Shown: positions 3,367-49,460 of the stretch, one piece after another
How the letters are laid out: every line of letters begins with the position of its first letter
How positions within the stretch are numbered: the stretch's first letter is position 1
Source: a virus
Lineage: Duplodnaviria; Caudoviricetes
Strand: one strand, 5' to 3'
IMG/VR virus record: IMGVR_UViG_3300011008_000010
Span: 32,001 to 96,000 of that record
Length of the DNA stretch: 64,000 nt
The notes under the pieces: model-generated
The model's input: only the letters and a program-made list of their open reading frames with translations
What the model was told of the DNA's origin: nothing
Database searches by the model: none
Made by a program: the position numbers and the translations under genes

Positions 3367-3792
3367 TTAGATATTGACAATGCCTTTATATTCTTTCGGC
3401 ATGGTCTTGTGGATAACGTTTCCGCTGTTCTCAAGAGCTTTAATGCCTTCAGGCTTGACGATCGCCCAGCAACCATGACCTTTAAACCAGTACGCCTTAT
3501 AGTTCTTCTTGAGAATCTCACCGACGGTCTTATCATAACCGCCGCCGTTTAAAGCCACAAGAATGATTTTCTCACCGGTTTTAGTATGCTTTGCATACCA
3601 GGCAGAAACGCTTTTTTTCGTCGTTTTCGGCGTTGCAATCGGCGTTTCCGCCATTTGCTGCTGCTTCAAAGCCGTTTCGGCTTTTTCGCGGTTTAAGGCT
3701 TCGATCATGGTATTAAAAGCCTTGAGTTCAGCAGGGGTTAAGTCCATGAAACGATCGACGAGTTGAGAGAGAGTGATTTCCTGTTTTTTCAT
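3367..3792 (-). CDS. hypothetical protein (141 aa)
   Basis: CAACGAAAGGAAGG leader/RBS and a downstream terminator. Confidence 0.8.
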   Translation of the reverse strand: MKKQEITLSQLVDRFMDLTPAELKAFNTMIEALNREKAETALKQQQMAETPIATPKTTKKSVSAWYAKHTKTGEKIILVALNGGGYDKTVGEILKKNYKAYWFKGHGCWAIVKPEGIKALENSGNVIHKTMPKEYKGIVNI

Positions 3793-4934
3793 AATGCCAC
3801 CTTCCTTTCGTTGAGTGTATGAGTGTTAGAAGACCGCGCATCCGTATCGCGCTTGCTTCTCCGTATCCGCGTCCGGCGTCGCCACCGACCACTCATAGCA
3901 TGGCATCGATCACAAATCCTGTCAAATTCGAAAGTTTGTTTGGGACGCAAAAATTGCCCGCAAAGCCGCACGGGTACTACAAAAAAATTTTTTTCGATTG
4001 TGACAAATAACAATTTATTTCAGTCGATCGGGGGAAAAATTTTCCATGCCGGGGGGGTACGGAAAGCCCATAAAATCAACATTTTTTTGTCGGAGGCCCA
4101 ATCACTCACCTTCATACACAGACCAAAAAATACCAATCCAGTCACTCCCAAAATAATATACAAAACAAATGTTCTTTCTCCAAAAAACCTCCTCTCCCAC
4201 ACTCACATCCATCTAATAACTCATATAAAAAAAACAGAAACTATGTTCGATAAAATATCTTCCTGGAACCTCTCTTTTTCAAAACCTCAAACTGCGAAAT
4301 ATGTTCAAAATTACTACGATTTTTTCCAACCCCTTTTAACTATCATAAAATATTCATCAGTGACACATTTTTTATCGTTTTATGATTATCTCACAACTGT
4401 ATTAATTCCATCTTAACAATCCCAATAATTATATCCCGGCACATCCTAACGCTAATCCTTCCCTCACATTTAAACCATATGTTCGATATTTATAAAATTA
4501 TAAAGTTCTAAAAATACTCTAAACACCATTCCACCCGATTTTTTAACAATTATCTGCTTGCATATCTCGCCATTCTGGAGTATTCTATAAGCACATTAAT
4601 CCGCAGAGAGATAAATAAACTTCGGTTTGTCGAGAGCATATGAACAAATCATGAACAAAACCCCAGAAATCCATCAACAGGAACCTTTGAAAATCATTTA
4701 AAAACAAATCAAATTTAAATATTTTTATTTAAAACAGGATGTTTTTTGATAAAACGAAACAAAAACAATTCAAAACCAAAAACAATTAAAATAATTGTCA
4801 GACAACTAATTAATTTAACCAAATCTCGGCTAATGCACAATAAAAAAAATAACAGAAACGTGTCAAGGTAAAAATAGATAAACCAAACACCAGGCAACCA
4901 TCAACCATCATCAAGTTCAAAAAGGGGGAATCTC

Positions 4935-5357
4935 ATGGTATTAAGGGAACAGTTCATTTGCCACATCGACAAGATCAGAGACTACGACAATTTTCAACAA
5001 CAGATTGATTCTCTTACCGGATCTGTCCGGGGAATGAATTCAAATCAAAGCGGTATGGTCGAATTAGACATTTATCCTATAGTCGTAGAAATGCTTCGTA
5101 CACTGGATGATTGTTTAGATACGCCTTATGTTAATATCCTTGACTGGACAATGAGCAGAAAAGTCGATCCTGTTATGCAAAAATCCGGATATGCGGAATA
5201 TACCGTAAGGCTAATTGAAACCTGGGCCACCGAATTTGAATATGGGACTCAGGCAAAAGAAATTTATGATCTGGACGCAGGTGTCAAAATTTATCTGCAA
5301 ACAACTGATGATCTATACGAATATTTGTTCTTGAACCTGCTGCCTCATAAAACCTAA
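4935..5357 (+). CDS. hypothetical protein
   Basis: AAGGGGG RBS; first gene of the rightward cluster. Confidence 0.75.
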   Translation: MVLREQFICHIDKIRDYDNFQQQIDSLTGSVRGMNSNQSGMVELDIYPIVVEMLRTLDDCLDTPYVNILDWTMSRKVDPVMQKSGYAEYTVRLIETWATEFEYGTQAKEIYDLDAGVKIYLQTTDDLYEYLFLNLLPHKT

Positions 5358-7607: not shown

Positions 7608-8186
7608 ATGACCATCGATATGTCAAAAAAAGAAGGTCTTAAAACCGGAGAATTATTACTTTTGGAAGACATATTGTATTTAAGCAAAAAGTATGTGAGC
7701 AAAGAATCGGAAAATTTTGAAAATGAAACTAATGATTTTTCTGAAAATTTTGAACAGGAAGAAATACCGACAGGAGATCATTATTGCATAAAATCTAAAA
7801 AAGGATTGGCAAAAGATCTGAATGTATCTCTTAAGACTATATATAACTATCTTCTGACTCTTGAAAAATATGGGTTTATTTATCGTGTAAAAAAGTATCC
7901 GAAAAGAATCTATGTCAACATGAAGGATATTTCTAAATATTTAGGAGGTATTGATGAAGATGGTCATGTTTTAGAAGGGGCTAAAAGATTTTCGGTATAT
8001 CTCGATCATATCAGATTGTTAGAAATGGATCTAAGAACATGGAACAGAGAAAAGAATGATTGTATAAAAACAGAAACGCAAAAAGGGACAGAACAAAATT
8101 CTCAAAATACAAAAATAATTGAGAATAAAAACGGGCATATATACTCTGTTTTAGATGAAGATGATTTTAGTTGGGTTAAAAATTAG
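7608..8186 (+). CDS. winged-HTH protein, possible replication initiator
   Basis: SKKGLAKDLNVSLKTIYNYLLTLEKYGFIYR HTH; iteron-like repeats immediately downstream. Confidence 0.65.
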   Translation: MTIDMSKKEGLKTGELLLLEDILYLSKKYVSKESENFENETNDFSENFEQEEIPTGDHYCIKSKKGLAKDLNVSLKTIYNYLLTLEKYGFIYRVKKYPKRIYVNMKDISKYLGGIDEDGHVLEGAKRFSVYLDHIRLLEMDLRTWNREKNDCIKTETQKGTEQNSQNTKIIENKNGHIYSVLDEDDFSWVKN

Positions 8187-8205
8187 TTAAAGATTAAATG
8201 AAAAA

Positions 8206-8281
8206 TTGTAAGTATTTACCGCTTTGTAAATACTTACCGCTTTTTTTGTAAATACTTACAACGTTTTTTGTAAATACTTAC
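8206..8281. repeat. iteron-like repeats
   Basis: TTGTAAATACTTAC at 8224, 8246 and 8268 (22-bp period) plus the inverted core GTAAGTATTTAC at 8208. Confidence 0.8.
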
Positions 8282-8391
8282 ACACATAGATATATATAAA
8301 AGATTGTTTCGCCCTCTCCGAGCGGGCGATGGTTGAGAACCATATTTTAATTTTTTTATTTATTTCTTTTGTTTATATATATCTTATTGTT

Positions 8392-8517
8392 TGTAATTTA
8401 AATAATATCTGTAACCTAAACAATAATTATAATTTAAACAATATCTGTAATCTAAATAATACTTGTAACTTAAATAATGTTTGTAACTTAAATGATAATT
8501 GTAATTTAAATGATAAT
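8392..8517. repeat. seven tandem imperfect 18-bp AT-rich repeats
   Basis: consensus approximately TGTAAYTTAAAYRATAAT at 8392, 8410, 8428, 8446, 8464, 8482, 8500. Confidence 0.85.
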
Positions 8518-8624
8518 TATATCGCGCGCGCGCGTAATGCGTAAGGAAGGTATATGTCTGATAAAATAAATATGGCTGATAAAATAAAAAATTTTTTTCG
8601 CCCCACATTCTTATAACTTCCCTC

Positions 8625-8653
8625 TTGCAATTCTTTTAAAAGAGATATATAAT
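8625..8653 (+). promoter_or_regulatory. sigmaA-type promoter
   Basis: TTGCAA-17 nt-TATAAT. Confidence 0.65.
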
Positions 8654-8711
8654 CCAATCAGTGAGGCGAACGTTTTCTTAAATTTGCTTAGGTGGCAAGG
8701 AGAAAAATCTT

Positions 8712-8951
8712 ATGGCAGTAATGAGTCAGGAAGAAATCCAAAGAATTGAAACACAGAAAGAATATGACAAAGGGTTTCTGAGACTTGTTAAAGCTAAATA
8801 CTCCTTGAAGTATAAAGCTCCACAAATTGAAATGATGTCTGCTTCAATCTTGAGAGAACTTGAAAAGATTTACAAGTATCTTGAAGAACAGGATCAGGTT
8901 GAATACCGGAAGGATTTAATTGCAAGATTAAAAGCGGCTGATGAAGAATAA
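8712..8951 (+). CDS. hypothetical protein
   Basis: AAGGAG RBS, downstream of the promoter. Confidence 0.75.
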   Translation: MAVMSQEEIQRIETQKEYDKGFLRLVKAKYSLKYKAPQIEMMSASILRELEKIYKYLEEQDQVEYRKDLIARLKAADEE

Positions 8952-37400: not shown

Positions 37401-40400
37401 AGTACGGATAAAGAACAGCTTGATAAGTTAGAGCAAGAGCTGAATACTTTTAATCTTGATAAGCTTGCAGAAAAAGCAGAGGCTCCTGCCAGAAAAGCAA
37501 TTGACGAGATTACTGTCGGACTTGGCAAGGTTAGAAAAGAACTTTTTGAAATTGAAAAAGCTACTATCAAACCGGCCAGTGCCTTAAAAGATCTTGGTAA
37601 GAAACTAAGAAGTTTTACCGGAACGCAAGAATGGCGCGACACATCTGATGCAAATATTGGCCTTAATTATATTGGATCAGAAGAGCAGCTTGCCAAAATA
37701 AGAGCTGCACGTCAGGAAATTGCACAGCTTGTTGAAACTGTCGGCAATATCAGCAAAGAATTCACCAAAGAAGAAGCCGAGAAGTTTACAAAGCAATATG
37801 AGAATGCAATCAGTAAGTTTGAAAATGCCGTAAGAAATGTTCAGAGAAAGACGGCTAAGAGCGGGAATGTTACTGTTCTTGGTACGGACACGTTGCATCA
37901 AGTTCAGGAAGTTGAAGATGCTATTAAACGCATTAATGAAATAGGTGCAAATGCTAATATTCAATGGACCACAAAAACAACCGGCGACATTACAAGGCTT
38001 ACCGGTGTTCTTACTGAAAATGATGGTACGGTAAAGACTCTTGTATATGATTACAATAATCTTACTACAGAGTTGTCTGAAGTAAGCGTCACAGAAAAGC
38101 AAACTGAAACATTTATGCAGCGCATAACAAAGTTGCTTCGCCAGAGAAGCGATGCTTTGATTGCGTACATTGGTACGTTCGCAAGTTTCTATCAAGTTAT
38201 GGGGAAACTTCGTGAAGGTGCTACTATTATCAAACAATTAGATACAAACATGACGGAGCTTCGTCGTGTTAGCGGTGCGACCAGAGGAGAATTGGAAGCT
38301 TTTAAGAGCACCGTTTTTGATATCGGTAGAGAAATTGGTTCTGCCGGAGATACAATTATAAAGCTTGCAGCAGATTATGCAAGACTTGGTTATTCATTAA
38401 GTGAAGCAAGCGAACTCGCTAAAGCATCTGCAATGTATATGAATGTAGGTTTTATTGATGATGCGACTTTTGCTATGGAAAGTTTAACATCGACGATGAA
38501 AGCTTACGGGATGCAAGCGAGTGAAGTTGCAGATATTGTTGATTAGAGTCGTTATCATATTGAAATAGATAACGATATATAGTTAGTCTATAGAGAAATC
38601 CGTAGATAGCGCGTTAAACGCCAACAAAGAAACTGAATTGCTGGGATACCGTAAAACTAATAGAACTACAACATAGGGATGAAACAAACTCAAGTGTGAA
38701 TGTGGCGAAAGCAGAAAAAATCTATTAGATGGCACATGGTTAAATCCTAAATGCTTCTACAAGAAATTGGTAATCAGCAGCCAAGCTCCGAACAGGAGAA
38801 GGTTCAACGACTATCCCTCGTGAGGGGAGTACACGCAAGCGCGTGGAAGTGGTTTCGCCTAAACGTATCGTAAGGTACGCATGGATAAGATATAGTCTGT
38901 GCCTTACTGAAAGGTAAGGAAGTTCATAAGAGAACTGCATGAGAAGTAGCGAGCTTATGTGAACGACGCCTCTAAAACGGCTAAAGTTGTGTGGTAATTA
39001 ACAAGTGGTTGTTACCGCTATGCATATGTAAAATTTTTAATATGTTTTTTTGCTTGACTTATTAGGGATAAATGCAGCATAATATTTATCGTGTAGTGGA
39101 TATATAATTTATTTATAGGTTTTGCGCATATGATTAAATCATATAGATTTAGACTTTATCCCAATAAAAGTCAAAGAGAACTTATGGCTCAAACATTTGG
39201 TAATTGCAGATTTGTCTATAATTATTATTTGGATAAAAGAATAAAATACTATGAAGAAACCAAAGAAACGTTTGGGTTTTATCAATGTTGCAAAGATTTA
39301 ACAGAATTAAAGAAGAAGTATGAATGGCTTCAAATATCCGATAAATGGGCTTTGCAAAACACATTGAAAGATTTGGACTTTGCGTTTAAAAATTTCTTTA
39401 GAAATAATGGTTATGGATATCCTCGGTTTAAATCAAAGAAAACACATAGATATTCTTATAAAACTACTTTTACAAATAATAATATAAAATGGTCGAAATC
39501 TGCAATTAGACTCCCAAAATTAGGTTGGGTTAAAGTAAGAGACAAACAAATACCACAAGGCAGAATTCTTAATGCTACGGTAAAACATGAACCATCTGGA
39601 AAATATTATTGTTGTATTTGTTGTACGGATGTTGAAATATCTCAACTTCCAAAAACGGGTTTAAACATTGGAATGGATTTAGGCCTTAAAGAATTTGCAG
39701 TTACCAATGACGGAACGAAGATAAATAATCCTAAGCACCTAGATAAGTCACTAAAGAAGCTTGTTAAATTGCAGCGAGAACTAGACCGAAAGACAAGGAA
39801 TAGCAATCGTTGGAATAAGCAAAGAATTAAAGTGGCTAGAATGTACGAGCGGATTACGAATCAAAGAAAAGATTTCTTGCAAAAATTATCCACGCAGATA
39901 ATATCAGACTATGACATTGTATGTCTTGAAAAATTAGACATACAAGAAATGATTGAACGTGCTGATTTTTCAAGAAGTATATTTGACGTATCATGGAACA
40001 TGTTTGTTCGAATGCTCGGATATAAAGCCGAATGGTACGGTAAAAAGGTGGTTAGGGTTGATAGATGGTACGCCAGTTCGCAAATTTGTTCGTGTTGTGG
40101 GCATGTTTACAAAAAGACAAAAAGTTTGTTAGTTCGGGAATGGACGTGTCTTAAATGTAAAACTCATCACGACAGAGATGTGAACGCTGCAAAAAACATA
40201 TTAAAAGAAGGGCTTCGAATAGCCTAATGTATGTATAGCGGTAGGAACTACCGTGTTAGCTCGTGGAGAAAGTAGGTAACGAAATCTGTGAAACGAGAAT
40301 CCGCAACTTTAGTTGTGTGAGGTTCAGAAGTTTAATGAAGTGGGTAAATTGTTGCCCTTGAATGGCTATATCGGTCAAAGGGTGGGGACACCAGAGACCG

Positions 40401-43400
40401 AGCAAAGACTTAATATATTGCCGAAATGTGCTTAAAGAAAATGCGTTGAGGATAAACAATATGTTATGGATGCGTAACGACTGCGATATGGTATGTGGCA
40501 ACACATATTGTTAAGCCTATCCATGCGTAATAAGCTATCGCATGTAATATACAGTCTGAACTACCGCTATAATCCAAATAATTATGAAACGGTAGAGTAA
40601 GGCCGAAAGACCTTGCCGCCACAGAAATGTGGTCATAAAAGCAACAGTTAAATTTGAACAATTTTGCAATTAGCTCTGAAGGCATCGGTGAAGCCTTACA
40701 GAGATCTGCTGCTGCGCTTGCACAAGCAAACAATGATTTAGACAAGAGCATCGCTCTTGTTGTGGCTGCTAATGACGTTGTGCAGAATCCTGAAACAGTT
40801 GGTACTGCACTGCGCACGGTGGCTCTTCGCATAAGGGGTAACACATGTTATTTTATTTTGTGCCCATCCAGAGAGAAATCCTGGTCTGCGTTGCGAATAA
40901 TAAATTACGCAGCATGATCGCTATATCGGTCAAAGGGATAACGGTATCCAGAGACCGACGTAACCCATAGTGGGGTACGCTACAGACTGCCAGATCTATA
41001 TGGCAACATATAGGTTTAAGCGATCTCGCTCTCCTATTCTGGAAACGATGATATACAGTCGGAACTCACGCTATAACCGTAATTAATGAAACGTGAGAGA
41101 TAGCCAGAAATGACTATCCGCCCGCAAGGGTCAGTAGCTTTAATCCAGGCGAAAGTAACAGAGTGGCAAAAGCGGATTTAGAAGAGTTAGGTGAAGACAC
41201 GGATGGATTAGCTAGCTCTGTATCGTCTTTAAGAGCAGAGGTTCTGGCACTTTCTGGTGTTGACATCATGATTGATGACAACACATTTAAAGATACTTAC
41301 AACATTCTAAAAGAACTTGCCTACGTATGGCATGATTTGACGGATGTTTCCCAAGCAGCTCTCTTAGAAAAGCTTGGTGGCAAACGTGGTGCTAACGTAA
41401 TCGCATCTATCCTTAGTAATGTAAACGATCTTGAGGCGGCTTATGCAGCCGCTGCTAATGCTGCCGGTTCTGCATCGGCAGAAAATTTAAAGTATCTAGA
41501 AAGTATCGAAGGTAAATTATCTCAACTCTCTGCTTCCTGGCAGGAGTTTTGGGATTCTTCATTTTTAAACAGCGTATTTAAAACCGGAATAAATTTATTA
41601 AATGGATTTGTTCAGATCTTAAATGATGCTGGCGGCATAGATTTTGCCATCACGCTCGCTGGCGTTGTTGGTTTGACACAGGCTATTAAACGGCTTGGTG
41701 GTTTTACCGGCAAGATAACAGAATTATATAACTCCTTTAAAGATTTCAGGGCGCTCATGAAAGATAATAATCTGAATTGGGCCGGTCTTTTTAAAGGGAG
41801 TTTCGTCAACGAGAAAGATATTAAAAAGAATGTAGAAAAAGTTGTTGGCAGTGCTTTCTCAACATACAATCAGGTATTTAATGCCGGTGGTGGTACTCAG
41901 GAAGCTGCTGCAAAAGCAAGTAGTGCGGCTTTAGCAGATCTCGTAAAAAATCAGGATCTATTGGCAAAATCATCCAGCGATTTAACTAAGTCTATGATTG
42001 AACGGGCTGCTCAAGAAGGTACGAACATAACGCTTGAACAGCAAGAAGCGAAGACAGTAGAAGTTCTGAACAATGAACTTGAGACTGGCGGAAAGAACAG
42101 TGCTCAATTTGCTAAAGGTCAAGCGGCAATGAAGAGTGCTATTGCTGCTATTGCTGTTATTGGCGTTTCTCTTGCCATTAATGCTATCAGCGCCTACATT
42201 CGAAAACAGGACGAATTAAGAGAGAAAATTATTGAGAACGGTAAAACGCAAGTAAAGCAAGCACGTAGTTTGCGTGATGCCGTTAATAGTTTTGATAAGA
42301 TCAATGCCGACTATAAGACCGGTGCGGCGACATCAGACGAATTAAGAAATGCTATTGAAGGCGTAAACGAAGCTCTCGGAGATCAAAAAGAATTATTAGC
42401 CGGTGTTTCGTCTGGCAGTGATACTTGGAGAAAGCGTCTCGATGAATTAATCGAGAAACAGAATGAGGTTGCTAAGAACGCGGCTCGTTCTGCGTTGTAC
42501 AATGCATCTAAGAAAAGTGCGACAGATACGGTCAAAGGTATTGGCTGGAGCATTGCCAAATACTGGACTTCTTCTTGGGGAGGTATGTTGCCGATTGGCA
42601 ACCTCCTTAAAGACGTAAATCCGATCTCTAAATTTTTTGGAAATAAGAAGGATCTTACCAATCGATCTTCTCAAATTAAGGCATTAAAGGAATGGCAGGA
42701 TGAGTTAAAAGAACTCGAAGAAGAATATAAAGAACTTGAAAAAGCCCAAGAAGAGGCTATGTCGGAAAATAATGGTGCTGCACTAAAGACCAATCCGATA
42801 AAGGTTCTTCTTGGTTGGCAAACGGATTATGCGAAAGAACTTGATAAGAATCAGAAGAAACAAGACGAGTTAATCAAGAATATTGCTCAATATAATGATT
42901 CTGTTCAAGAGACGGCTCAGGCAGCAGCATATCTTGTTTGGGAAGACAGTATTAAAGATATAGATAATGCGGCTGACAAATACAAAAAATTAGATAAAGC
43001 CGTAGAGGATGTAATTAGGACATTTGGACTTGCCGATGACGAAGAAGGCATCAAAGCCGCCAAAGAAATGATTCTGAGTTTCATGGAAATGGATTCGGAA
43101 TCTGCTGGGTTTATGGCTCTTAAAAAGGGAGCCGAGGATGCATCTAAAGCAATTGGTGCTGCAAGCGTTTCCGTAGAAGGACTGTTAGAAGCGTTTGATA
43201 AAGGAGATCTGACCGAACAAGACATTTTTGATCTTAGCGATGAAAGATTTAAGAATTATGTAGAGCAGAACCAACTTTATATTAAGAGTGTAGAGCAAGC
43301 TATCGAAACGCTTCATGCTTGGAAAGATGAAGTCAGAGCCGAGGCGAAAGAAACCAATACGCTTGTTGGTGTTATTAGGGACTCTAAAGATGCCATAGAT

Positions 43401-46400
43401 GATTTCCAGTCTGCTATATCGAAACTTGGTGCTATAATGAAAGCCGATTATTCGAATAACGCTTCTGGTATGATCGATGATCTGCAAGATCTAATCGACG
43501 TTATCAGTGGGATGGATACCAAAGTATCCGAGCAATTATTCGATAAGTTAAATAGTGCGTATAGCGTAGAAGCTCTTTCGTCTGCAATGAAGAAGGCCTC
43601 CGAAGAGGCAATGAAATTTAAATTAGATGGCTTAATTGATTCGTTAAATCTTGCAAATCCTGCATTGGAAAAGATGCTTCGTCTTCTTGTTGAACAGGAA
43701 AAACAAGTAGAAGCAATTACATCTGATTTAGATTCGTTTAAATCTGCTTATCAGAACCTTATTGGGGTGGTAAAAGAATACAATGAAAACGGATTTTTAA
43801 CGGCGGATAATATTAACACCATTCTGTCGATGAGTCCGGAGTATTTGGCTGCTCTTGATTATGAAGGTAATAAGCTAAAGTTAAATGAAGAAGCGTTAAA
43901 GAAAATTGTCCTTGTTCGATTGGAAGAAGCAAAGAGGCAAATTGAGTCTAATAGACATACTCAATTGTCTGCAATATATGCAGAACAAGAAGCGAGGGCA
44001 AAGCAAAAGTCTGCCGAATTAACATATGAACATGCGACAGCATTGTTACAAGAAGCAATTGCAGCAGGAAAATCTGAAACAGAAATACTGAAACTTGAGA
44101 AGCAAGTTTATAAACTGTATGAAGCACAACAAAAATTACAGGGTGTAGAGTTTTCGGGTACGCTAGATTCAGATTTGCAAGAGCAAGCAGATGCAGTAAA
44201 TGAAACTGCCGATGCTGCGATTGATAGTATTGATCATGTCATAGACGAGTTTGAAAACGGATCTATGGATGCGCTCAATACATTTCTCGGTGTTACAGAT
44301 GACATTGAAAAAGATGCCGAGGATGCCGCAGAAGAACTTAAATCTCAGATAGACTCCGTTCTTTCTAAGTGGAAATCTGCGCTGGATTCCGGTGCGATTA
44401 ACTATAAGCAATATCTGGACAAAATGAAGTCCATGCGCAATCAGTATGCAGATCAGTTAAATACCGAAGATTTGCTGCAAATGGATGTAGATATTGCCCA
44501 GGAAGAACAGAATATGTGGAAGGAGGCTATGGACGCTGCCGGTAGATATATTGACCGGGAGATGAAGAAGCCTATTGAAGATCGTATCACCGCATTAAAT
44601 TCTGAGAAAGATGCATTAGAAAGAAATAAGGATGCCATCAGTGATTACTATGATGGTATCATTGATGGTTTTGAGAAACAAAAGGAAGCTGTTGAAAATC
44701 AGATTGACGCTGTTGAGAAAGCGTATGAAGCTCAGATTAAGCCTCTTGAGAATCAGCAGAAGGCAATCAATAAGCAAATTAAGGCTATTGAAAAGCAGAA
44801 GCAAGTTATTGAGGATGAGATAAAGGTTCTTGAAAGATCTAAACGGCCTTATGAAAAACAACAAAAGGCTATTGATAAAGAAATTAAAGCGATTGAGCGT
44901 GAAATTTCTGTTATTGAAAAATCCAAGAAACCTTATGAGCAGAAACAAAAGGCATTAGAAAAGGAAATCAAGGCAATTGAAAAGCAGATTGATATCCTTG
45001 AACGCTCCAAGCGTCCTTATGAAGATCAACAGAAGGCGATAAACAAGGAAATCAAGGCGATTGAAAAAGAGATCAACGCTCTTGAAAAGACTAAAAAGCC
45101 TTATGAGAAGCAACAGAAGGCTATTGCAAAGCAAGTTAAGGCAATACAACGGCAGATCGATGCGCTTGAAGATACAAAACGTCCTTACGAAGATCAGCAA
45201 AAGGCAATTGACAAGCAAGTCAAGGCAATTAATAAACAGATTAAGGCTTTAGAGAAATCCAAAAAGCCTTATGAAGATCAGCAAAAGGCTATTGACAAGC
45301 AATCAAAGGCAATTCAGAAGCAGATAAATGCTTTGGAAAAGTCTAAAAAGCCCTACGAAGATCAACAGAAGGCGATAAGCAAAGAAATCAAGTCTATCGA
45401 AAAGCAGATTAAGGCGATACAGGATACTGAAAAGCCCTATAAAGAAGAACAAGAATCAATCGAGAAGTCTATTCGTGCGATTGAGCAGAAAATTAAAGCG
45501 TTTGAAAAACTGCAACAGCCATATAAAGAACAGCTTGATCTTGTTAATAAGGAAGTTGCCGCTCTTGAGAGAGAAATTGAACTTATGGAGCGGTCAAAAC
45601 GATCTTATGAACAACGACGTGATGCAGTTCAAAATGAAATTGATGCTCTGGAATATCAGATGTCTGTTATTGGCAGACAGGAAACTGCGTATAAGCGCGA
45701 ACAAGACGCTCTGAATAAAGACATTGAACTTCTTGAGCGCCAGGTTTCTATCCTTGAATATAGGAAGAAGCCTTATGAAATTGCACAAAGACAAATTGAA
45801 AGACAGATTGGTCTTTTGCAGCAAGAGCAGAAAGAACTTGAGAAATTAAAAGAGCCTTACGAAGAAGAGATTAAAGCCTTAGAGAAAGAGCTTGAGGCTA
45901 TGCAGGAAGCCAATGAAGAACGGCAAGCTGCACTTGATCTTCAACAGGCAGAATATAATCTCAGGAGAGCACAGCAGCAAAGAACCAATTATGTTTATCA
46001 GGATGGACAGTTCCAGTATATTGCAGATCAGACAGCTATTAAAGATGCTCAAAAGACGATAGATGATCTCAAATACGAGGAATCTGTAAAACGCGTTGAA
46101 AAGGCAATTGATAGGTTACAGGATAAGATTGACGAGATTACCGCTCAGAGCGATGCTATCCAAAAAGATATCGATGAACTGACAGATAAAAACGATCAAC
46201 TTGCCGAAAGCATTCAGCGCATACAGGATGAAATAGATCCTATTCAGGACGATATAGATGAGCTGACGTTTAAAGCAGAAGAATTACAGTGGTCTATAAA
46301 TGACATTGAGTATTCGATGACAAGTATCCAGTATGCCATCGAAGACTTAGAGGCTGCAAACGAAGATTTGGAAGAATCAATCCGACAGATTGACGAAGCT

Positions 46401-49400
46401 ATTCAGCCTTTACAGTATAGGCTTGATTCATTAAAAGATACTGCTTCTGACTTGCAATGGGAAATCGACAAGATACAGCAATACATCGATCCGTTAAATA
46501 CAGAGATCGAAGGGTTGAATGATACGATTTCTGAACTTCAGCTTATTATTGATGAAATCGAAGAATCAATTGATCCGCTTAATGAAAAGATCGACGAGCT
46601 GAATGAGCACAATGATTTATTACAGGAATCTATCGATGCTATAACAGACGCGATTGAACCGTTAAACGAACAAATTGACGAGTTAGCGGAACAGTCAGAT
46701 TTAATACAGGAAAAGATTGACGAAATTAATGATGCGATTGATCCTCTTAATGATCAGATTGATGATCTGAATGAACAAGGGGATGAATTGCAAGAAATGA
46801 TCGATTCTATCGGCGAATCTATTGATGAGCTAAGTCGTCAAATAGATGATCTGAATAGGCAGAGCGATTTTATACAGGATATTATCGATGAAATCGATGA
46901 GGCTATTGAGCCTCTCGAAGAACATTTAGACGAACTGAATGAAAAGAGCGAAGAGCTTCAAGAGCAAATAGATGCAATTGATGAAGCAATCGAACCTTTG
47001 CAGAGAACAATCGACGAGTTAAACGATCAGATTAGTGATTTGCAGGATGTTATCGATGCTATCGATGAATCTATGGAGCCGCTTCAGGAAAGAATCGAAG
47101 CACTTAATGAAGAGAGCGAAGAACTTCAGCAGACTATCGATGAAATCGATGAGGCCATTGAAGAACTGAACTATCAGCTCGAACCGTTAAACGACGAGAT
47201 TGATCTTCTTAACAGGCAGAACGATGAACTTAGCGAATCAATAGAAGAACTCAGAGAACAACAGGAGTTGGAAGTTGAAGCGTTACAGGCTCAGAGCGAC
47301 GCTATAAGCGAACAGATTGATTATTATCAGCAGTTAAAAGAACAGGCAGAAGAATCGATCCAGGCTCAGATAGATAAAATCGATGAACATATCGATGCGT
47401 TGGATAAGGAAATCGAAGGTATCGAAGCATATAAAGATCAGCTCACGAGCATCTTTGATGAAATTGATGCAAGAAAAGACGAAGATCTTCTTACTACGTT
47501 ATTCGGTGAAGGATGGCAAGAGAAACTACAATCATTAGATCCTCAGATTATAGCTGATTTTGCTGCTGGATATGAAGATTCTACGGAAAGATTAAAGGAA
47601 GCGAATCAGGTAGTCATTGATTCGTTAGAAGGACCAGATGGTCTTGGACAGGCAGCGGAAGAAACCGAACAAGACGTGTCTGAATTAAAAGATACGATGG
47701 CCAATGCCGATGAAGCAATAGGCGAAGGATCGATTAAGGATGCTATGGATCAGACTGCTGTATCTGCTGAAGATATGGCAGAAAGTTTTGTTAAAGTTAG
47801 AGACAACATTGACGAAGTAATTGATGCTATTGGAAGGCTTTGGGAACAGCGTGGGACTTTTAATGAAATTGGAGGCATGATAGATGTCTACCTGATTCAA
47901 AAGTTCCATGAAACCAAAGAAGCTATTGATCCTACTTTAATTGATACAATTGGTTTGCTGTGGGATGCCGTTCGTGTCAACAGCGTGATGATTGGCGATG
48001 CCATCGAGAATAACATATTAGGTGCTCTAAAGGATATTGAGGAATTCTTGAATAAGAATATTCCCGAAGCATCTGATTATGCAAAACAAGAGGTGATCAA
48101 AGATATTGAAGAGATCGTCTCTTTTATGACTGATCGTGCGCAGCCTGGTTTATTAACTGCAATCGATACGATCAAAGAAGAGGCAATCAACGCTTCCGAT
48201 GAAATTGTTCGTGAAGTTGAAGACGATATAGATCAGATCGTTAGTTATGCGGAAGATCCTGGTAAAGCACAGCTTGTTGCTACGGCAGAGCAGACAAGGA
48301 TTGATATTTCTGAGATTTCAGATGATCTTGTGGATGATATCGAAGATGATGTTAGAGAAATCTGTGAGGTTATTGTTCCTAATGGTCTTAGAGAATGCGA
48401 AAAAGAGATACAAGATTCCGTTGATAATGTAATTATTCCTAAATTAAGGGATATAAAAGACGAGATCGACGAAATTGTTAGTGCTGCTTTAGAAGCAATG
48501 CAAACTGTTTCTGAAATGGGTATGACAATTGCCAATGCAATTAATGAGGTTGCACAAAATATTAGCAATGTTATTAGTGGTATTGAGGAATCAATTAATA
48601 ATACCTATGAAAATCTCACAAAAGAAGGCGGTCTAATACAAAAGCTACATGAGGCGGCAGAAGCTGCTGCTCAGATCCCTGGATATGGTGTTGCTCAACC
48701 AGATCAAACTCAGGATGATGGCGGTGGCGGTGATCAGAATAACAATTATGATAATAACAACGGTGGTGGTGACAATAATTATGATGTTCAGTCTGCCGAA
48801 GTTCAAACAGATCAGTTTGTTGTTCAGAATGCCAATATTGAAATGACAACATCTGAAGGTAAGCGAGATGGATATCAAACTTACCGGATGGGCGAAAAGA
48901 GCATTTCTTATCAAAGATATAAGACCGAGGCTGGAAAAGAAGAAATTGAAAAATGGAGAGCGCAAGGTTACGACATCAGAGTAACATCTGGAGTTGGTGG
49001 TCGAACACTCTTCACTGTTGATCGCTATGGCAAAGGTGGGTATGTTGCAACTGAAAAGTTAAAGACGCCACTTACCAATTTGGCCAATGCTGTTGGCGAA
49101 GATAAGATGGTCGCCGTACAAGAAGGCGAACGCATCCTTACTCCTACTCAAAATAGGGATTTTGAAGAATTTGTCAGATTAACACCTGAGTTAATTAGTG
49201 CAACTGAAAGTCTTGCAAAATATGCAAAATTATTCGAAGACATTTCCACTATGGATTCGATGGCGTCAGAAGCAGGCATGATGCGTGGTGTCAATGGTGT
49301 TGTGGACAGAGCAAATGCTGCTCCTGTTACGAATAATACTATGTCGCTTAATATCGGTGATATCCATGTGCATGAAGCTAAGAATGCTGACGACCTTGCA

Positions 49401-49460
49401 AGACAGATTAAGAACAATTTGCCTAACTCTTTGATTCAGGCGTTAGGTAGAGCAAGTTAA
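34500..49460 (+). CDS. tail tape measure protein, spliced: join(34500..38543,40328..40345,40657..40839,41166..49460), 4179 aa
   Basis: the TMP core (LDTNMTELRRVS...ADYARLGYSL...DIVD-KFNEVG-NNFAISSEGIGEALQRS...RIRG-AKADLEELGED...LLEKLGGKR) is contiguous only when three inserts are removed; each insert follows a U and ends in G. Confidence 0.9.
39054..39083 (+). promoter_or_regulatory. possible internal promoter for tnpB
   Basis: TTGACT-18 nt-CATAAT. Confidence 0.4.
39130..40227 (+). CDS. tnpB: RNA-guided endonuclease TnpB (IS200/IS605 family)
   Basis: YRFRLYPN N-terminus, RuvC-I GMDLGL, RuvC-II CLEKL, zinc finger CSCCG..CLKC, RuvC-III DRDVNAAKNI; catalytic D/E/D all present. Confidence 0.95.
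   Translation: MIKSYRFRLYPNKSQRELMAQTFGNCRFVYNYYLDKRIKYYEETKETFGFYQCCKDLTELKKKYEWLQISDKWALQNTLKDLDFAFKNFFRNNGYGYPRFKSKKTHRYSYKTTFTNNNIKWSKSAIRLPKLGWVKVRDKQIPQGRILNATVKHEPSGKYYCCICCTDVEISQLPKTGLNIGMDLGLKEFAVTNDGTKINNPKHLDKSLKKLVKLQRELDRKTRNSNRWNKQRIKVARMYERITNQRKDFLQKLSTQIISDYDIVCLEKLDIQEMIERADFSRSIFDVSWNMFVRMLGYKAEWYGKKVVRVDRWYASSQICSCCGHVYKKTKSLLVREWTCLKCKTHHDRDVNAAKNILKEGLRIA
40238..40327 (+). ncRNA. omegaRNA scaffold/IS605 right end (5' boundary approximate)
   Basis: CGGTAG-GAA-CTACCG hairpin, GCTCGTGGA...GAAACGAGAATCC, subterminal hairpin, terminal TTCAG. Confidence 0.8.
40346..40656 (+). ncRNA. group I intron 2 of the tape measure gene (311 nt, no ORF)
   Basis: P1 GGGU|AA/UUGCCC with U-G at the splice site; AAAUUGUU pairs with 3' exon AACAAUUU (P10); P7 GACTG 40479/CAGTC 40552; terminal G. 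Confidence 0.88.
40840..41165 (+). ncRNA. group I intron 3 of the tape measure gene (326 nt, no ORF)
   Basis: P1 GGGU/GCCC; UUUUGU pairs with 3' exon GCAAAA; P7 GACTG 40985/CAGTC 41056; terminal G; core similar to intron 2. Confidence 0.88.

Follow-up and report, generated by a model that had tools for sequence, protein, structure and literature searches.

Group A IStrons, the CdISt1-like elements, combine a group I ribozyme of subclass IA2 with insertion after TTGAT, ATTAT or TTTAT and with a TCAG 3′ end, and their insertion sequence (IS) component, enclosed by a stem after a GAACGA-type motif, holds open reading frames (ORFs) of the IS200/IS605 type, of which ORF A is often missing (PMC4227781). 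IStrons without tnpA and IStrons in phages were catalogued in 2014 (PMC4227781), and the activity of TnpB and omegaRNA in IStrons was shown in 2023 (10.1101/2023.11.20.567912). Here, we analyzed a 64,000-nt stretch of DNA (the window, bases 32001–96000 of IMG/VR virus record IMGVR_UViG_3300011008_000010, which has 137,795 bp and is an estimated 77% complete). The record belongs to an uncultured large phage and carries, as a single copy, an IStron inserted in the tape-measure gene. At a rough probability of 60%, we read this locus as a transposase-less IStron that also lacks the left-end hairpin for TnpA and whose TnpB–omegaRNA complex would be aimed at the empty allele of the gene.

The element shares most with CdISt1 and the CdiIStrons of Clostridioides difficile (PMC4227781; 10.1101/2023.11.20.567912), namely a 5′ group I ribozyme, the TTGAT target, the TCAG end, an IS part following GAACGA within a short stem, a TnpB of the IS200/IS605 type, an omegaRNA at the right end and, as in most of those copies, a missing tnpA. 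The nearest C. difficile TnpB proteins are 55–57% identical to that of the window. It differs from them in its large uncultured phage host, its location in a tape-measure gene, the deletion of the left palindrome, its single copy and its position 18 nt upstream of another intron. Group B, or IS607-type, IStrons comprise CboIStron and the phage-borne CbISt3 and CbISt4 (C. botulinum phages c-st and D-1873); there, activity of TnpB and omegaRNA has been demonstrated, and splicing and the formation of guide RNA are in competition. In contrast to the window element, they have a serine TnpA, a target ending in GG, TGGG as the transposon-adjacent motif (TAM) and CGG as the 3′ end. ISDra2 likewise uses TTGAT as both target and TAM and takes its TnpB guide from the right-end flank, but it resides in bacterial chromosomes, encodes TnpA and lacks a ribozyme. 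Finally, the T4 td/I-TevI, Twort, and SPO1/SP82 introns resemble the locus in having a nuclease ORF inside a self-splicing intron of an essential phage gene, in a predicted target that is the intron-less allele of co-infecting relatives, and in clustering within a conserved segment. Unlike theirs, the window nuclease would be RNA-guided, with a target set by the 3′ exon sequence and not by a protein–DNA interface.

The original prediction for this locus had placed a group I ribozyme right after TTGAT, followed by an intact tnpB and a TTCAG right end whose last G is also the omega-G of the intron, with no tnpA present, and each of these points was borne out. The ribozyme matches Rfam RF00028 at 65.9 bits (E 1.7e-14, gathering score 50), beginning 25 nt past the end of the exon 1 ORF, and is the sole Rfam group I intron found in the window; subclass IA2 is taken from the IStron literature and not from an assignment of our own. 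The last five bases of exon 1, TTGAT (38539–38543), are at the same time the IS605 target, the predicted TAM of TnpB and the 5′ strand of helix P1, in which the internal guide strand TAGTTAG (38580–38586) pairs with exon TTGAT plus TA and forms a U.G pair at the splice site. An ORF-enclosing stem (ACCGCTATGCATA versus TATGTATAGCGGT, 12 of 13 positions complementary) surrounds tnpB. TnpB contains the Pfam domains HTH_OrfB_IS605, OrfB_IS605, and Cas12f1-like_TNB (E 4e-19 to 2e-27), matches the ISDra2 TnpB structures over its full length (PDB 8bf8, 8exa, and 8h1j; E 1e-94), and keeps both an intact RuvC D-E-D triad (GMDLG, VCLEKL, DRDVNAA) and two CxxC pairs, at 320 and 340. The element ends in GAGGTTCAG at 40327, 100 bases past the tnpB stop, and is followed by AAGTTTAATGAAGTGGGT at 40328–40345. 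The terminal G, at 40327, is both the omega-G and the last base of the omegaRNA scaffold, and the reading frame is restored after it. A search of the whole 137,795-bp record with the Y1_Tnp profile gave no tnpA match, and tblastn of the record with two phage TnpA proteins gave no credible match (best E 1.4). A 16-nt inverted repeat (39035–39050/40191–40206) was treated as chance, being AT-rich with an E of 0.2. All five defining features of group A are present, and the element is almost certainly a group A (CdISt1-like, IS200/IS605-type) IStron. Coordinates are collected in Table 1.

Table 1. Features of the tape-measure locus, in window coordinates
Feature	Position	Strand	Basis or remark
Tape-measure exon 1 ORF, 1,348 aa	34500..38543	+	PhageMin_Tail N-terminal part at aa 1275–1348
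Whole IStron (intron 1), 1,784 nt	38544..40327	+	Boundaries TTGAT/TAG and TTCAG/AAG
P1 and extension	38544..38586	+	Same P1 in minimum-energy folds of five IStron 5′ ends
Group I ribozyme core	38569..38919	+	Rfam RF00028, 65.9 bits, model positions 1–253 (full model)
GAACGA motif, start of IS component after P9.2	38961..38966	+	Motif as defined in PMC4227781
ORF-enclosing inverted-repeat stem, 5′ arm	39014..39026	+	Pairs with 40230–40242
Promoter-like site, TTGACT, 18 nt, CATAAT	39054..39083	+	47 nt before tnpB; consensus scan 10/12
tnpB, 365 aa, intact	39130..40227	+	Pfam domains and ISDra2 TnpB match
Stem 3′ arm, then omegaRNA scaffold to TCAG end	40230..40327	+	Covariation and conservation with IS605 elements
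Exon 2, 18 nt, KFNEVG	40328..40345	+	Micro-exon; 40328..40347, with AA, is the predicted guide and target
Intron 2, 311 nt, ORF-less	40346..40656	+	P1 GGGU/GCCC, terminal G
Exon 3	40657..40839	+	Joined-exon alignment
Intron 3, 326 nt, ORF-less, paralogue of intron 2	40840..41165	+	P1 GGGU/GCCC, terminal G
Exon 4	41166..49460	+	Joined-exon alignment

Exon 1 ends in ...ATTGTTGAT, and the first three bases of the intron are an in-frame TAG stop. With introns 1–3 removed, the joined exons give an open frame that aligns without gaps, across all three junctions, to the tape-measure protein that Brevibacillus phage Sundance encodes without interruption (window IVDKFNEVGNNFAISSEGIGEAL...RIRGAK versus Sundance IVDMFNEVGNNFAVSSEGIGEAL...RLRGV). 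This alignment makes the IStron the first of three introns, with 18 nt of exon between it and intron 2. Splicing at GAT/AAG is very likely, given that the junction is in frame, that the alignment to the homologue has no gaps, and that P1 contains the U.G pair; an intron-less junction in this phage's own background would read ...ATTGTTGAT directly joined to AAGTTTAATG. The in-frame GAT before the insertion, together with the in-frame stop that opens all five phage IStrons considered below, was tried as a signal and rejected because 46 of the 50 TTGAT sequences in the tape-measure gene have GAT in frame. Introns 2 and 3 are each preceded by GGGU, which can pair with a nearby GCCC, occur in relatives at the same positions, and are not recognized by Rfam even at E up to 10; the AA after exon 2 is common to intron 2 and exon 3. 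The probability of a random plus-strand TTGAT being the single one in the ~380 nt of exon sequence that flanks introns 2 and 3 is ~1 in 359. The position of the IStron near these introns may reflect selection for a conserved target or just a tolerated site.

We then considered the RNA that TnpB would use. Seven other elements, two of them TnpA-bearing IS605 copies from phages Unity and SW27, have sequences after tnpB that align with the 3′ 100 nt of the window element. Across these eight elements, RNAalifold gave an omegaRNA scaffold of 19 pairs, 10 with compensatory changes, to which the window conforms; it consists of a hairpin (40239–40253), a stem (40259–40266/40292–40299), and the right-end hairpin with TCAG (40301–40327), and matches no Rfam family. 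Four bases, CGGT (within 40230–40253), belong both to the 3′ arm of the ORF-enclosing stem and to the 5′ arm of the first omegaRNA hairpin. As CGGT is common to both helices, the ribozyme ORF-loop fold and the omegaRNA fold are mutually exclusive, and the overlap fits the published competition between ribozyme and guide-RNA folds.

In IS605 and IStron TnpB systems, the guide is the right-end flank (10.1101/2023.11.20.567912; PMC13565253), and at the sequence level this part of the original prediction stands. The predicted guide is the 16–20 nt past the right end, AAGTTTAATGAAGTGG(GTAA), and the TAM would be TTGAT, judging from the left flanks of all five phage IStrons and from homology to ISDra2. 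Within the window, the 23-nt TAM plus guide has no match at up to three mismatches other than the right-end junction itself (two mismatches, both in the TAM); the number expected from shuffles is 0. In the phage's own genome, the best TTGAT site has 5 mismatches in the 16 guide positions, so no off-target is present. Four matches of the 20-nt guide in bacterial and archaeal genomes and three of four matches in metagenomes were set aside as chance, since they lie in unrelated contexts; the fourth metagenome match (L010) is the contig L006 described next.

Alleles without the element, which the original prediction had proposed to look for, do exist. Relatives were obtained solely through exact-DNA scans and a large protein database; megablast of the locus against 50,697 phage records gave no match, and peptide-pattern scans of IMG/VR with TnpB and with the tail of exon 1 found no relatives. 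A protein search based on the last part of exon 1 gave four relatives (proteins P0122–P0125) whose ORFs run continuously through IVDKFNEVG into intron 2, which shows that intron 1 is missing there. DNA was available for three of them (L139–L141). In L140, identity to the window runs for at least 70 nt past GTTGAT, giving a perfect target; L139 combines TTGAT with a single mismatch, at guide position 12; and L141 (5644–5672) has GTGGAC, a mutated TAM, and four synonymous guide mismatches. Two more distant phages complete the set. L006, the sole other viral contig in the exact-DNA scans, has TTGAT plus guide intact, in a tape-measure gene that is very different outside a stretch of 30 identical nt, and L007 has the guide after TAGAT; both carry an intron at the intron 2 position, and TnpB searches of their records found none. 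The predicted nuclease target is therefore, at the sequence level, the intron-less allele, exactly in L140 and L006 and with one mismatch in L139. The flanking exons are 68–81% identical to the window across the relatives (about 74–81% in those carrying TAM plus guide), and introns 2 and 3 are 83–93% identical. The occupied allele was found, 100% identical, in two further metagenomes, making three samples in all.

Some features of these alleles concern the segment itself. L141 encodes the same VDKFNEVG with six synonymous changes, by drift or nuclease escape; its codon change (two of eight codons identical versus a ~40% background) is not significant, and the six changes within the 30-nt stretch show that constraint there is not absolute. 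The 30-nt identity island between the window and L006 was considered as a co-conversion tract on account of its nine consecutive identical codons (background 43%), and this reading was rejected. The intron 2 homologues of L140 and L007 contain ORFs of 288–306 aa (L140, 7105–8025; L007, 5908–6774) with weak DUF2726 matches, the intron 3 homologue of L139 contains a 315-aa ORF (7831–8778) with a weak DUF723/CapR match, and L141 is without intron 3. These ORFs are probably homing nucleases. The varying presence of introns and of nuclease-like ORFs indicates that introns exchange at this tape-measure segment, a hot spot.

The left end of the element sets it apart. A left subterminal palindrome, recognized by TnpA, is reported to be conserved in all group A IStrons (PMC4227781). 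In the other four phage IStrons examined, TTGAT and the first intron bases pair with TAGTYAG ~50 nt downstream, and this helix extends as a covarying stem whose cap, a palindrome of roughly ACTCGYGAYTTTAGTCRTGAGT, is very similar to the hairpin of the right end. In phage Unity, the autonomous IS605 has this left-end structure after TTGAT, and L018, a TnpB-only IS605 element, has it as well. The window copy keeps P1 and the covarying stem CGTTATC/GATAACG (38550–38556/38568–38574), and an 11-nt loop replaces the palindrome; alignment against L016, a metagenome contig described below, and against L002, Clostridioides phage ES-S-0173-01, leaves a 17-nt gap in the window at this point. Similarity between left and right ends, present in the other four IStrons, is absent from the window copy, whose right-end hairpin (40301–40327) is intact. 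Of the subterminal palindromes that mark both ends in group A, the right one is thus present and the left one absent, which we read as secondary loss within the family and not as exclusion from it. Biochemistry of IS608 and ISDra2 has established that TnpA must bind both end hairpins. By analogy with these systems, and from this one copy, the left end appears to have preserved its role in RNA and lost its role as DNA in transposition.

These observations suggest how the locus could work. On tape-measure (late) transcripts, the ribozyme would pair TTGAT with TAGTTAG and splice at GAT/AAG, and the tail protein would be made. A fraction of unspliced RNA would be bound by TnpB as omegaRNA, and the complex would cut DNA made up of TTGAT plus guide, which exists only in element-less alleles such as L140 and L139; the phage's own copy would be spared, having TTCAG in place of the TAM. 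When both kinds of phage infect one cell, the break would be repaired from the IStron genome, which is homing, or the rival genome would be destroyed. Having lost its left-end hairpin, the window copy can probably no longer be mobilized by TnpA in trans, and the remaining routes would be vertical descent and TnpB-driven homing. Activity of the TnpB–omegaRNA complex on its predicted target is probable given the intact protein and scaffold, and homing of the window IStron between phages is plausible.

The wider family of elements bears on how long this arrangement may have lasted. The protein database holds thousands of TnpB proteins at 57–72% identity to that of the window. The closest (72%) lies on the metagenome contig L016/L017, in an IStron whose ribozyme scores 69.3 bits with Rfam, which follows ...CGCATTGAT and which also ends in GAGGTTCAG. 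The window IStron is 76% identical to this one over 1,769 nt; the ORF-enclosing stem is kept, and the ribozymes are 87.8% identical (77% for L002, and 77–88% across the other TnpB-bearing elements). The L016 IStron (3406–5210) resides in a homologue of the tape-measure gene (72.7% nucleotide identity over 2.7 kb), at a point corresponding to ~47016 of the window, in the coiled-coil repeat region of exon 4 and ~6 kb of coding sequence downstream of the window IStron site; the window is empty there and has ATCGAC instead of ATTGAT. Altogether, five independent phage IStrons each follow TTGAT, end in GAGGTTCAG, and are without tnpA (one has a 15-aa remnant), in tail, terminase, or unknown large genes. 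Their tnpB genes, 44–71% diverged, are intact with catalytic residues, and the ratio of nonsynonymous to synonymous substitution rates (dN/dS) is ~0.1, which points to purifying selection on tnpB.

The copy with the tnpA remnant is also the one whose host phage genome is published. Clostridioides phage ES-S-0173-01 contains an unannotated 1,902-nt group A IStron in its large terminase gene (CP067352.1, ~63166–65067; L002, 3320–5221), with the 15-aa tnpA remnant, an intact TnpB (59% identical), and an intact left palindrome; its ribozyme scores under the Rfam gathering score. A 22-nt ribozyme motif, GAAGTTCATAAGAGAACTGCAT, occurs on more than 116 IMG/VR contigs (L021–L136), mostly large ones of 100–300 kb, and a TnpB lies downstream in just 5 of 123 occurrences, by which this ribozyme lineage is mainly a conventional phage intron. 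Between L122 and L046, near-identical carriers of another IStron, the mismatch distribution contained no tract centered on the IStron.

The strongest competing explanation is that the IStron is a neutral passenger, inserted by a host TnpA acting in trans and persisting since splicing is harmless and imprecise deletion lethal, with a TnpB that is idle and intact only as it is young. We consider this unlikely. A single-copy element at a site occupied in one phage, family members at unrelated TTGAT sites, a weak translation start for tnpB, and the lack of tnpA in all phage copies, as in most C. difficile copies (10.1101/2023.11.20.567912), are what it would lead one to expect. It does not readily explain why tnpB should remain intact at a dN/dS of ~0.1 in five independent tnpA-less copies, nor why compensatory changes have maintained the omegaRNA helices, and TnpB-only loss has never been seen in IStrons (PMC13565253). 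Furthermore, the IStrons of the window and L016 have diverged about as far (76% identity) as their tape-measure genes (72.7%), which speaks for long residence and against a recent insertion.

A second alternative, which we regard as improbable, is that TnpB acts purely as a weapon, cutting the tape-measure gene of competitors too divergent for conversion, with no spread of the intron. L006 would be such a competitor, as it offers a perfect TAM and a 21-nt match but shares just 9 nt of identity with the window upstream of the site, with no similarity detected in exon 1, and the killing of competitors by phage homing nucleases is known from literature summarized in PMC13565253. Closer relatives with flanks about 77–81% identical also carry the target, however, so that conversion is feasible there, and the shared hosts that these phages would need lack support. 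Least likely of all is an ordinary non-autonomous transposon mobilized by a host TnpA, with TnpB re-cutting the donor site after excision: re-cutting is a demonstrated TnpB role in IS605 and IS607 (PMC10055086; 10.1101/2023.11.20.567912), the family has clearly moved among TTGAT sites and the right-end hairpin is intact, but the phage record has no tnpA, and the left palindrome, found in every other relative examined including TnpA-bearing IS605, is deleted here although TnpA needs both end hairpins (for IStrons: PMC4227781).

Several observations count against our preferred reading of a transposase-less IStron, disabled at its left end, with a TnpB aimed at the empty allele. Occupation of the site is confined to one phage; six further alleles, the perfect target L140 among them, lack the element, with no sign of a sweep. 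Homing would be marked by an intron shared at one site between otherwise diverged genomes, together with co-conversion tracts, and no second occupied phage was found. Loss of the left hairpin was observed in one copy, and neutral decay could account for it. Because synonymous sites are saturated, the dN/dS value is rough, and it may reflect selection in earlier contexts. The promoter-like site before tnpB is weak evidence, being not above shuffle expectation and absent from L016, and no clear Shine-Dalgarno sequence precedes tnpB. Related IStrons occupy five different TTGAT sites, the closest at another site of a homologous gene, which shows that the family has transposed in its history. Copies at many unrelated loci had been named in advance as a pointer to ordinary transposition rather than homing; they are found at the level of the family, at other TTGAT sites and in L016, and the window element itself is single copy. 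The proposal of homing by TnpB is likewise upheld in part: empty targets exist and the left palindrome is lost, while occupancy is confined to one phage and L140 stays empty.

That homing or exclusion between phages is what maintains tnpB seems to us possible, at slightly less than even odds. A stronger version, in which the transposon has fully turned into an RNA-guided homing intron that spreads through TnpB–omegaRNA alone, is speculative and stands only a little above the neutral-passenger explanation. In this version, TnpB would target the most conserved stretch of the tape-measure gene, and, the guide being exactly the 18-nt micro-exon, the first splice step of intron 2 (a cut at 40345/40346) could trim the omegaRNA to guide length, coupling both introns.

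A 2026 review suggested that tnpA-less IStrons could spread by intron homing and named co-infecting phages as possible targets of transposon homing (PMC13565253), so tnpA-less IStrons, phage IStrons, and the idea of TnpB-driven intron homing are already known. We found no paper on a group A IStron in a phage tape-measure gene, nor a phage test of TnpB homing. Particular to this case are the lost left-end hairpin, the micro-exon guide, and the graded panel of natural target alleles. The genes that harbor group A IStrons include structural and packaging genes of large Firmicute-type phages, and the copy in the published Clostridioides phage genome is unannotated there. A role demonstrated for TnpB is to retain transposons at their sites; that it replaces a protein homing endonuclease and spreads an intron between viruses has been proposed in the literature and is yet to be demonstrated. 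For this question, the locus is a compact natural test set, with one occupied allele for which the transposase route appears closed, and with empty alleles graded from a perfect target through one guide mismatch and a TAM variant to a TAM change with four mismatches.

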